A DNA stretch of 64,000 bases from Polyangia bacterium (GCA_039923495.1 JBDTCO010000087.1:14404-78403), one strand, 5' to 3'. Shown: positions 29,564-29,767, counted from the stretch's first letter. Notes: generated by a model not told the origin, from the sequence alone. Numbers and translations: made by a program.

Positions 29564-29767
29564 ATGAAGATCATCCTGCTCGCCTGCTCCATCTGCGCCC
29601 CCGGACTCTTCGCTTCGCCGGGTCTGGCACCCCGGCCCTCATCGACGGAGGCCGTCAGTGCGGCGCCCATCGAGGGTGCAGAGCTCGCGTGCTCGGATGT
29701 GGGGCGCTCGTGCAGCGTCGACCGCAACTGCTGCTCTGGCACCTGCAGCAAGGGCACCTGCCAGTAA
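29564..29767 (+). CDS. secreted cysteine-knot-like prepropeptide (67 aa; C-terminal C-x6-C-x5-CC-x3-C-x4-C block)
   Basis: MKIILLACSICAPGLFASPG signal, pro-region PRPSSTEAVSAAPIEGAELA, then CSDVGRSCSVDRNCCSGTCSKGTCQ-stop. GC3 >85 % in this frame. ATG 29564 preferred over GTG 29540. Confidence 0.6.
   Translation: MKIILLACSICAPGLFASPGLAPRPSSTEAVSAAPIEGAELACSDVGRSCSVDRNCCSGTCSKGTCQ

Follow-up and report, generated by a model that had tools for sequence, protein, structure and literature searches.

Do bacteria make small exported proteins folded as inhibitor cystine knots (ICKs, or knottins)? Knottins are prized as drug and imaging scaffolds, nearly all work on them concerns animals, plants, and fungi, and the literature we searched holds no bacterial knottin with a solved structure or a known function. 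The question is raised by a 64-kb window (the whole stretch of DNA analysed, 64,000 nucleotides) from a metagenome-assembled genome (MAG) of a Polyangia bacterium, Polyangia being a group within Myxococcota. At 29564-29767 on the plus strand, an open reading frame (ORF) codes for a 67-amino acid (aa) precursor whose last 25 residues hold six Cys. We think it likely that this is a genuine Polyangia gene for an exported ICK mini-protein, a binder or inhibitor of a fixed extracytoplasmic target.

A six-cysteine peptide gene under purifying selection

The ORF has an ATG start, 67 codons, and a TAA stop (29564..29767 including the stop), and its translation, MKIILLACSICAPGLFASPGLAPRPSSTEAVSAAPIEGAELACSDVGRSCSVDRNCCSGTCSKGTCQ, is identical to the NCBI entry 'MAG: hypothetical protein ABI321_09185 [Polyangia bacterium]'. 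Its last 25 residues have the spacing C-x6-C-x5-CC-x3-C-x4-C, and translation thus bears out the 67-aa ORF and Cys framework described in an initial reading of the window from its sequence alone (hereafter the sequence-only reading). The three codon positions have GC contents of 0.54/0.65/0.84, against 69% for the window as a whole; the third-position value (GC3) is close to the 0.89 of neighbouring real genes, and the overlapping antisense ORF at 29434-30180 has 0.77/0.66/0.61, a non-coding pattern. These values, together with the purifying selection on orthologues described below, uphold the earlier claim from GC3 bias that the frame is translated. A six-frame scan finds the Cys framework exactly once in the window; none of 100 windows simulated with a Markov-1 model contains it, and a more permissive ICK pattern has a mean of 0.02 per simulation, so that its presence here is beyond chance. 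The orthologous locus L001 has an in-frame TAG four codons upstream of the common ATG-AAG, and the conserved start is therefore ATG 29564, not GTG 29540; the latter, the choice of the ORF caller, was rejected. Scans around the gene found no promoter or terminator, and Rfam gave no credible match across 28500-30500.

Spurious ORFs are plentiful in a 69% GC genome and this one is short; moreover, the gene is known from MAGs and metagenomes alone. It could thus be a chance ORF, or an artefact of assembly or contamination such as eukaryotic DNA binned into the MAG. However, two proteins 60-67% identical to the window protein (P0002 and P0003) are encoded in the same gene order in independent metagenome assemblies. 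In this syntenic trio the shared order extends over 20 kb and comprises guaB, guaA, YfhO (-), a 124-130-aa hypothetical gene (+), the peptide gene (+), and a Zn-ribbon rhomboid gene (-); peptide orthologues lie at the matching syntenic position in L001-L006, from assemblies of several samples. The sequence-only reading had looked to relatives for frame disruption or loss of Cys positions; in the trio, the indels are in-frame and confined to the linker, and the Cys columns are kept. Across the 25-codon Cys block the trio shows 7-10 synonymous versus 1-3 non-synonymous codon differences, with a ratio of non-synonymous to synonymous substitution rates (dN/dS) of 0.016-0.058 at dS 0.8-1.1 (Nei-Gojobori), far below 1. 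GC3 resembles that of the neighbours, bacterial genes flank the peptide gene on the same contig, and the simulated windows lack the framework. A chance or artefactual origin is effectively refuted by the synteny and the substitution pattern, and we give it almost no credence; the peptide ORF is a real gene under purifying selection and a member of an existing family. Conservation differs sharply along the precursor, at 92% identity in the mature domain versus 53% in the prepro region within the trio, and 77% versus 20% between lineages.

A profile of the three C-terminal regions of the trio, searched exhaustively against 1.84 billion representative proteins, gave 13 matches at E<=1e-3. Five of these have a single domain (P0002, itself a query, and the new P0005, P0006, P0007, and P0015) and five have two to four tandem modules (P0008, P0009, P0011, P0012, and P0013); P0004, P0010, and P0014 were discarded as spurious on inspection, with tetratricopeptide (TPR) or low-complexity repeats. 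E-values run from 5e-10 to 6e-4 for the single-domain P0005-7 and P0015 and the tandem P0008, P0009, P0011, and P0013. A word-indexed search added P0017-P0022, bringing the single-domain members to at least 13. They lie on high-GC (63-72%) bacterial contigs with ordinary bacterial genes (ECF sigma, LigA, GGDEF, CHASE3 kinases, sulfatase), and share the consensus CS[DP]xG[RW][SA]CSV[DG]RNCCS[GN]xCxxGxC at the extreme C-terminus after a signal-like N-terminus; the Cys columns are invariant across 20 family domains. P0019 is from a Polyangiales MAG, as the window protein is from a Polyangia MAG; the taxonomy of most contigs was assigned from GC and gene content alone. Among 185,579 species-representative genomes, the sole confirmed locus is the Polyangiales MAG (9-residue pattern, for which we estimate ~9 chance matches), and a scan of viral contigs found no relatives, so nothing suggests phage carriage. 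In metagenome contigs, CSV[DG]RNCC gave 64 pattern matches of which none was confirmed by tblastn, which we do not read as biological absence; an IUPAC DNA pattern for CSVDRNCCSG gave no matches there, though the JGI-derived P0005, P0017, and P0022 have the motif, and we take this to be a limit of the tool or collection. No NCBIfam family matched any member scanned.

Five of the 13 single-domain precursors (P0002, P0003, P0007, P0015, and P0021) have a seventh Cys in the linker, in an A-[VLI]-[VI]-C or ASAC context 13-22 residues upstream of Cys I; at the aligned position the window lineage has Ser32 (AGT, 29657-29659). This additional Cys could take part in dimerisation or be a handle for isomerisation.

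Searching with the tandem proteins returned 48 tandem relatives (P0030-P0073; L012:2040-2585; L017:4001-4696) with 2-8 modules each, the named sources including 'MULTISPECIES [Sorangium]' (P0040), a Polyangiaceae MAG, and a 'Deltaproteobacteria' MAG. We take the set to include both secreted proteins and lipoproteins; many start with lipoprotein (lipobox) signals, such as ...ASACGEN and ...AVACGSQ. P0040 is located on the complete 12.8-Mb genome CP150327.1; it is without a signal peptide and adjoins an insertion sequence (rve transposase and AAA), and may therefore be truncated. Most tandem proteins have no significant Pfam match (eight scanned, plus precomputed annotations) and none of four scanned matched NCBIfam; several Pfam cutoffs are nonetheless passed by tandem proteins, P0013 exceeding the UPF0506 gathering score with 33.3 bits. 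By sequence, the window peptide is the free single-module form of a Cys-rich module family characteristic of Polyangia. We note that P0012 (L011:70-1803) is a 577-aa protein rich in N-x-S/T sequons, with an N-terminal anchor and four knottin-like modules, CSSSGQSCSSNSNCCSGLTCSNSTC, on a 292-kb contig of 32% GC that is clearly not from a myxobacterium.

Predicted fold and export of the precursor

The precursor would begin with a Sec-type signal peptide and continue through a short disordered Pro/Ser/Ala linker into a C-terminal six-Cys knottin domain of 25 residues. We delimit this domain, on the strength of selection, structural modelling, and profile similarity, as residues 43-67 (29690..29764, plus strand; CSDVGRSCSVDRNCCSGTCSKGTCQ). 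An AlphaFold2 model of the full-length protein (model 1, 13-sequence alignment) has a predicted local distance difference test score (pLDDT) of 83-90 over residues 41-67 and ~48-57 in the remainder; a 40-residue construct modelled with 20 domain sequences (model 2) reaches 91-94 over its last 20 residues and has short beta-bridges. Foldseek searches of the Protein Data Bank (PDB) matched model 1 to 12 structures, all of them knottin toxins, and nearly all of the 19 matches of model 2 are knottins. The best match of model 2 is a hairpinless mutant of omega-atracotoxin-Hv1a (prob 0.93, root-mean-square deviation [rmsd] 0.7 A over 22 columns), followed by U3-scytotoxin (prob 0.84, rmsd 0.4 A) and also kappa-SrXIA; lower matches are other spider, scorpion, and squash knottins, and a few (LEAP2, Dkk4, and procolipase) have other, related folds rich in disulfides. 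MCTI-A and SOTI-III are low-ranked fold matches. The models superpose on solved knottins at 0.4-1.5 A, and every Foldseek E-value is >0.1. The structure prediction proposed in the sequence-only reading for the six-Cys block gave a confident model, with pLDDT of 83-94 and matches nearly all to solved knottins.

Sequence comparisons point the same way at the level of the family. The window protein alone matches only ICK toxins among PDB sequences, none significantly (E>=0.8), and a profile of 20 family domains has 44 of its 46 PDB matches to knottins. The best of these are atracotoxin-Hv1 (E 9.4e-5 and 1.1e-4), Xt3a (4.5e-4), and omega-conotoxin SO3 (1.6e-3), ICK toxin matches, including omega- and delta-conotoxins, spanning 9e-5 to 1e-2; MVIIA is a weak match (E 0.09). 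The profile alignment to native Hv1a (1axh) ends at Cys V, and only the hairpinless mutant (1hvw) aligns over its full length. Against Pfam, the window protein narrowly misses UPF0506 (PF11703; 22.2 bits, gathering cutoff 23.2) and is below the cutoffs of Toxin_18 (PF08087; 21.8 versus 24.3), Conotoxin_I2 (15.7 versus 27), and Conotoxin (PF02950; 13.1 versus 25.1), these matches covering residues 40-66 only. Among family members, matches at E<=1 are found in 18 of 19 for Conotoxin_I2, 16 of 19 for Conotoxin, and 15 of 19 for UPF0506; P0022 passes the PF02950 gathering score with 26.1 bits, and PF06357, the omega-atracotoxin-Hv1 family, weakly matches six of 19. The hidden Markov model comparison suggested earlier was therefore borne out for the family profile, which is significant against ICK toxins, but not for the window protein, which is under all Pfam knottin thresholds. 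Prediction and profile similarity together lend good support to placing the C-terminal domain in the knottin class.

We considered whether the domain might be disulfide-rich but unknotted, of the disulfide-directed hairpin (DDH) type, Dickkopf/colipase-like, or a simple hairpin, in which case 'knottin' would be a misnomer. Disulfide connectivity is implied by superposition only, the weak matches include Dickkopf_N, LEAP2, and procolipase, and the Foldseek E-values all exceed 0.1. Yet C-C-CC-C-C with loops of this length is the ICK framework in its canonical form, the backbone lies within 0.4-0.7 A of solved ICK peptides (22 residues, pLDDT >90), and profile matches in the PDB are nearly all knottins; we regard an unknotted domain as very unlikely.

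The segment preceding the domain is less uniform. Residues 1-17 (29564..29614, plus strand; MKIILLACSICAPGLFA) form a signal-peptide-like segment, judged, like those of the other members, by a heuristic scan of charge, Kyte-Doolittle hydropathy, and small-x-small sites. It has one Lys and a 15-residue hydrophobic core (10-residue Kyte-Doolittle mean 2.9), followed by small-x-small sites. All 13 single-domain members have an equivalent N-terminus despite ~20% identity there, with one or two basic residues (none in P0015), a 10-residue mean of 2.2-3.0, and small-x-small sites. The Pro/Ser/Ala-rich linker, residues 18-42 (29615..29689, plus strand), is predicted to be disordered from its low pLDDT and length variation; the distance from the likely cleavage site to Cys I is ~5-23 residues in the 13 members. 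Since this linker is length-variable and no conserved or dibasic processing motif precedes Cys I in any of the 13, the tripartite prepropeptide of the sequence-only reading finds support in its signal-like N-terminus but not in its pro-region, which is better regarded as a linker. A lipoprotein reading of the window protein was rejected because Cys8 is not conserved, and Cys11 has no lipobox and comes too near the start of the hydrophobic core.

Gram-negative envelope biogenesis includes export through Sec and periplasmic oxidation catalysed by Dsb. We infer that the precursor is exported by Sec and cleaved by signal peptidase I (SPase I) near residue 17-20, likely after LFA or SPG, the exact site being ambiguous. 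The periplasmic Dsb system would then oxidatively fold three disulfides to give a very stable mini-protein of ~47-50 residues, or ~25-27 if the linker is trimmed.

Candidate targets and the surrounding genes

What might such a peptide do? Sequence is conserved in the mature domain and divergent in the signal and linker, charge is near neutral (net 0 to +2 in 11 of 13 members, +1 in the window domain), the gene is single-copy in the window at a housekeeping locus, and no immunity, transport, or modification genes accompany it; these features point to a binder or inhibitor of a fixed target. We envisage tight, shape-complementary binding or inhibition of one conserved target outside the cytoplasm, with the invariant loops 1-2 (SDxGRS / SVDRN) as the likely interface. 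In cone-snail and spider toxins, including the conotoxin superfamilies, it is the signal that is conserved and the mature peptide that is hypervariable; the pattern seen here argues against both a fast-evolving toxin of the venom type and a cationic membrane-lytic peptide. The target may be a molecule of other organisms, such as an enzyme or channel of prey, a competitor, or a grazer, an idea that we hold tentatively and as somewhat short of probable; the producer's own periplasmic or extracellular hydrolases or envelope components are a rather doubtful choice.

Several points weigh against the proposal of an exported, target-binding ICK protein. The fixed-target argument is an evolutionary one drawn from a 25-codon domain, and the target itself is hypothetical. 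The window protein reaches the gathering cutoff of no Pfam knottin family; I-IV/II-V/III-VI disulfides are implied by superposition on knottins alone, and AlphaFold may merely reproduce the commonest fold for such a Cys pattern. The window cleavage site (between LFA and SPG, or between SPG and LAP) is weak and ambiguous, and P0002 has Pro at +1 of the equivalent site; the N-terminus might therefore stay uncleaved as an anchor.

That last possibility bears on a self-directed role in the envelope, in which the peptide would act in the periplasm or at the surface, either as an inhibitor of the producer's own or incoming hydrolases, with a logic like that of ecotin, or as a structural or regulatory ligand, possibly tethered through an uncleaved N-terminal anchor. 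Its immediate surroundings fit such a role: the window neighbours are YfhO, a 130-aa hypothetical protein, the Zn-ribbon rhomboid, guaA/guaB, and an acyl-CoA ligase, and the guaB, guaA, YfhO, and rhomboid neighbourhood is conserved in three genomes, with no toxin, immunity, or secretion genes nearby. Nor do any modification enzyme, dedicated transporter, or immunity genes lie beside the window peptide gene, as would be expected of a cluster for a ribosomally synthesised and post-translationally modified peptide or a bacteriocin. The very strong purifying selection, the weak SPase site, the envelope-tethered lipoproteins among the tandem relatives, and the many knottin families that are protease inhibitors (SOTI-III and MCTI-A being among the fold matches) are also in its favour. 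However, the synteny reflects close relatedness, as the 20 kb of collinearity indicates; more distant members are located in unrelated gene contexts, and no conserved partner gene was found outside the syntenic trio. The adjacent rhomboid is decayed in L001 and the peptide gene intact, and the peptide has neither a squash P1 loop nor a carboxypeptidase-inhibitor tail, with one residue after the last Cys. We therefore place a self-directed role on the unlikely side, although well within consideration, and prefer the broader proposal of an exported binder or inhibitor of a fixed target.

As for the individual neighbours, the signal-bearing 130-aa hypothetical protein is encoded at 29124..29516 on the same (plus) strand, 47 bp upstream of the peptide gene. 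It has 78-86% identity in the two syntenic genomes, which makes it more conserved than the whole peptide precursor, and belongs to no Pfam or NCBIfam family, with weak Lipoprotein_16 and SCO5918 matches at noise level. No terminator-like site was found between the two genes, and co-transcription is possible. The 130-aa protein is absent beside non-syntenic family members, being unlike the gene next to P0019, and is therefore not an obligate partner. The Zn-ribbon rhomboid gene (29778-30953, minus strand) is convergent with the peptide gene and full-length in the window and L005 (360-391 aa). In the P0002 lineage it has decayed (L001:10211-10527), leaving a called 150-aa Zn-ribbon ORF and remnants of the rhomboid 3' end next to the intact peptide gene, for which reason a functional link was rejected.

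AAA_16-type ATPases (STAND-like, TPR-containing) adjoin other family members, at L007:4819-7953 (-), L013:4531-7218 (+), and L017:4889-5704 (-). Their proximity is probably a matter of chance, as the similarity is at the level of the class and such genes are common in these genomes; those near L007 and L013 were rejected as partners on the same pairwise comparison. Small downstream ORFs were likewise rejected as conserved partners, being unrelated. In the window, 30595-32285 (plus strand) holds a 466-aa ORF followed by a 97-aa ORF with a signal-like N-terminus, a position conserved in L001 and L005. The real start of the 466-aa ORF is probably internal, at a signal-like MRALLTTLILAATVSVPVAASA, and the ORF has a weak FlgT_N match; its counterparts in L001 and L005 are unannotated genes of 355-358 aa, followed by one of 97 aa.

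Should the knot and a target be confirmed, the family would show whether bacteria natively make and use ICK peptides, with a bearing on where the fold arose, and could yield a scaffold that bacteria can express. It is a minimal example, at 25 residues, near-neutral, and strongly conserved, in a lineage famous for bioactive products, and the tandem relatives in Sorangium, with a complete genome, suggest a host where genetics could be attempted. If the domain is instead an ordinary envelope-associated Cys-rich module, the gain is a modest one of annotation, with a new Pfam/NCBIfam domain family.

Comparison with known cystine-knot and disulfide-rich peptides

The best profile and structure match is omega-atracotoxin/omega-hexatoxin-Hv1a (1axh, 1hvw; PF06357), which has the same C-x6-C-x5-CC-x3-C through five Cys, a Gly in loop 1, and the N/D-CCS motif. 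The two differ in precursor and in kingdom, and also in loop 5. In native Hv1a this loop is a 13-residue beta-hairpin that carries the pharmacophore, whereas the bacterial loop 5 has four residues (SKGT) and lacks the long hairpin of PF06357.

Likeness to O1 conotoxins (MVIIA/FVIA/SO3 and delta-TxVIA; PF02950, PF08087) extends to the VI/VII Cys framework, CC-[ST]-G-[ST]-C, the four-residue last loop, a mature size of 25-27 residues, and the layout of signal, spacer, and C-terminal peptide. The omega-conotoxin spacing given in the sequence-only reading was accurate, the PDB sequences of FVIA and SO3 aligning with a one-residue gap in loop 2. Kinship with omega-conotoxins did not find support. 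In omega-conotoxins, which are highly basic, loop 2 has six residues and includes the key Tyr13; the bacterial loop 2 is one residue shorter and the domain, with a net charge of +1, is not strongly basic. The signal and pro regions show no similarity, the protein scores under the PF02950 and PF08087 cutoffs, and a conserved mature domain behind a variable signal is the reverse evolutionary mode. Judged by thresholds, signal sequence, and functional loops, the window protein is not a member of the conotoxin family.

Squash trypsin inhibitors have C-P-R/K-I-L-x-x-C in loop 1, with P1 Arg/Lys directly after Cys I; loop 1 of the window protein is S-D-V-G-R-S, with Arg at loop position 5, and is thus not a P1 loop of this kind. 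Indeed, the pharmacophores of the nearest knottins are all absent from the peptide, be it the Hv1a hairpin, the basic face and Tyr13 of omega-conotoxins, the squash P1 loop, or the carboxypeptidase-inhibitor tail.

Could the peptide nevertheless be an animal-type ion-channel neurotoxin, related to animal ICK toxins through common ancestry or horizontal transfer and directed at nematodes, insects, protists, or other eukaryotic grazers? In sequence and structure it matches omega-atracotoxin-Hv1, Xt3a, and omega/delta-conotoxins best, loops 1-4 are spaced as in Hv1a, and the eukaryote-like defensins confined to actinobacteria and myxobacteria provide a precedent (PMC8819291). But the similarity is mostly Cys framework, structural Gly, and CCSG motif, and the closest structure is a mutant without the hairpin pharmacophore that the peptide also lacks. 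With a loop 2 of five residues and little charge it is unlike the omega-conotoxins, and its mature-conserved, signal-divergent pattern reverses venom toxin evolution. GC3 and synteny show a long-resident bacterial gene, for which the large endogenous tandem-module family offers a bacterial origin. We thus consider a neurotoxin very unlikely, and keep to the reading of an endogenous exported binder or inhibitor.

The sequence-only reading had called ribosomal cystine-knot peptides essentially eukaryotic, which is too strong: the KNOTTIN database (2018) already has bacterial knottin sequences, flagged by sequence rules and modelled, without experimental structure (PMC5753296), and the module described here is present in >40 tandem myxobacterial proteins. 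A 2026 review repeats that knottins are found in 'all kingdoms' (PMC13352647). Knowledge of the KNOTTIN bacterial set, compared here by its description (PMC5753296), is likewise at the level of sequences and models; the Polyangia single-domain family differs in having no Pfam or NCBIfam model. Our literature search found no paper linking knottins to myxobacteria and none on the single-domain family.

Bacterial defensins, such as actinomycesin, are also ribosomal disulfide-stabilised mini-proteins with a patchy occurrence in myxobacteria, where the precursors have signal, pro, and mature parts; they differ in their cysteine-stabilised alpha-beta fold, their Cys pattern, and their action as cationic cell-wall-targeting antibacterials (PMC8819291). 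They are analogous, not homologous, to the Polyangia peptide. An ancient endogenous myxobacterial ICK family could share an evolutionary link with the ICK toxins of animals, a case already argued for defensins, with the free peptide serving as a knottin toxin or inhibitor on a eukaryotic channel or enzyme. We rate this as quite unlikely; if true, it would make the peptide the first bacterial ICK amenable to experiment and give a hint of how the fold arose.

Finally, the multi-knot architecture of tandem ICK proteins (DkTx; SCREPs, PMC9885460) parallels that of the myxobacterial relatives with 2-8 modules, and DkTx is among both the structural and the profile matches. The bacterial tandem versions differ in often being lipoproteins and in having up to eight modules, and the window protein in having a single one. 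The novelty of the Polyangia peptide is that of an uncharacterised member, or small family, of a known structural class in an unusual host lineage, not of a new category.

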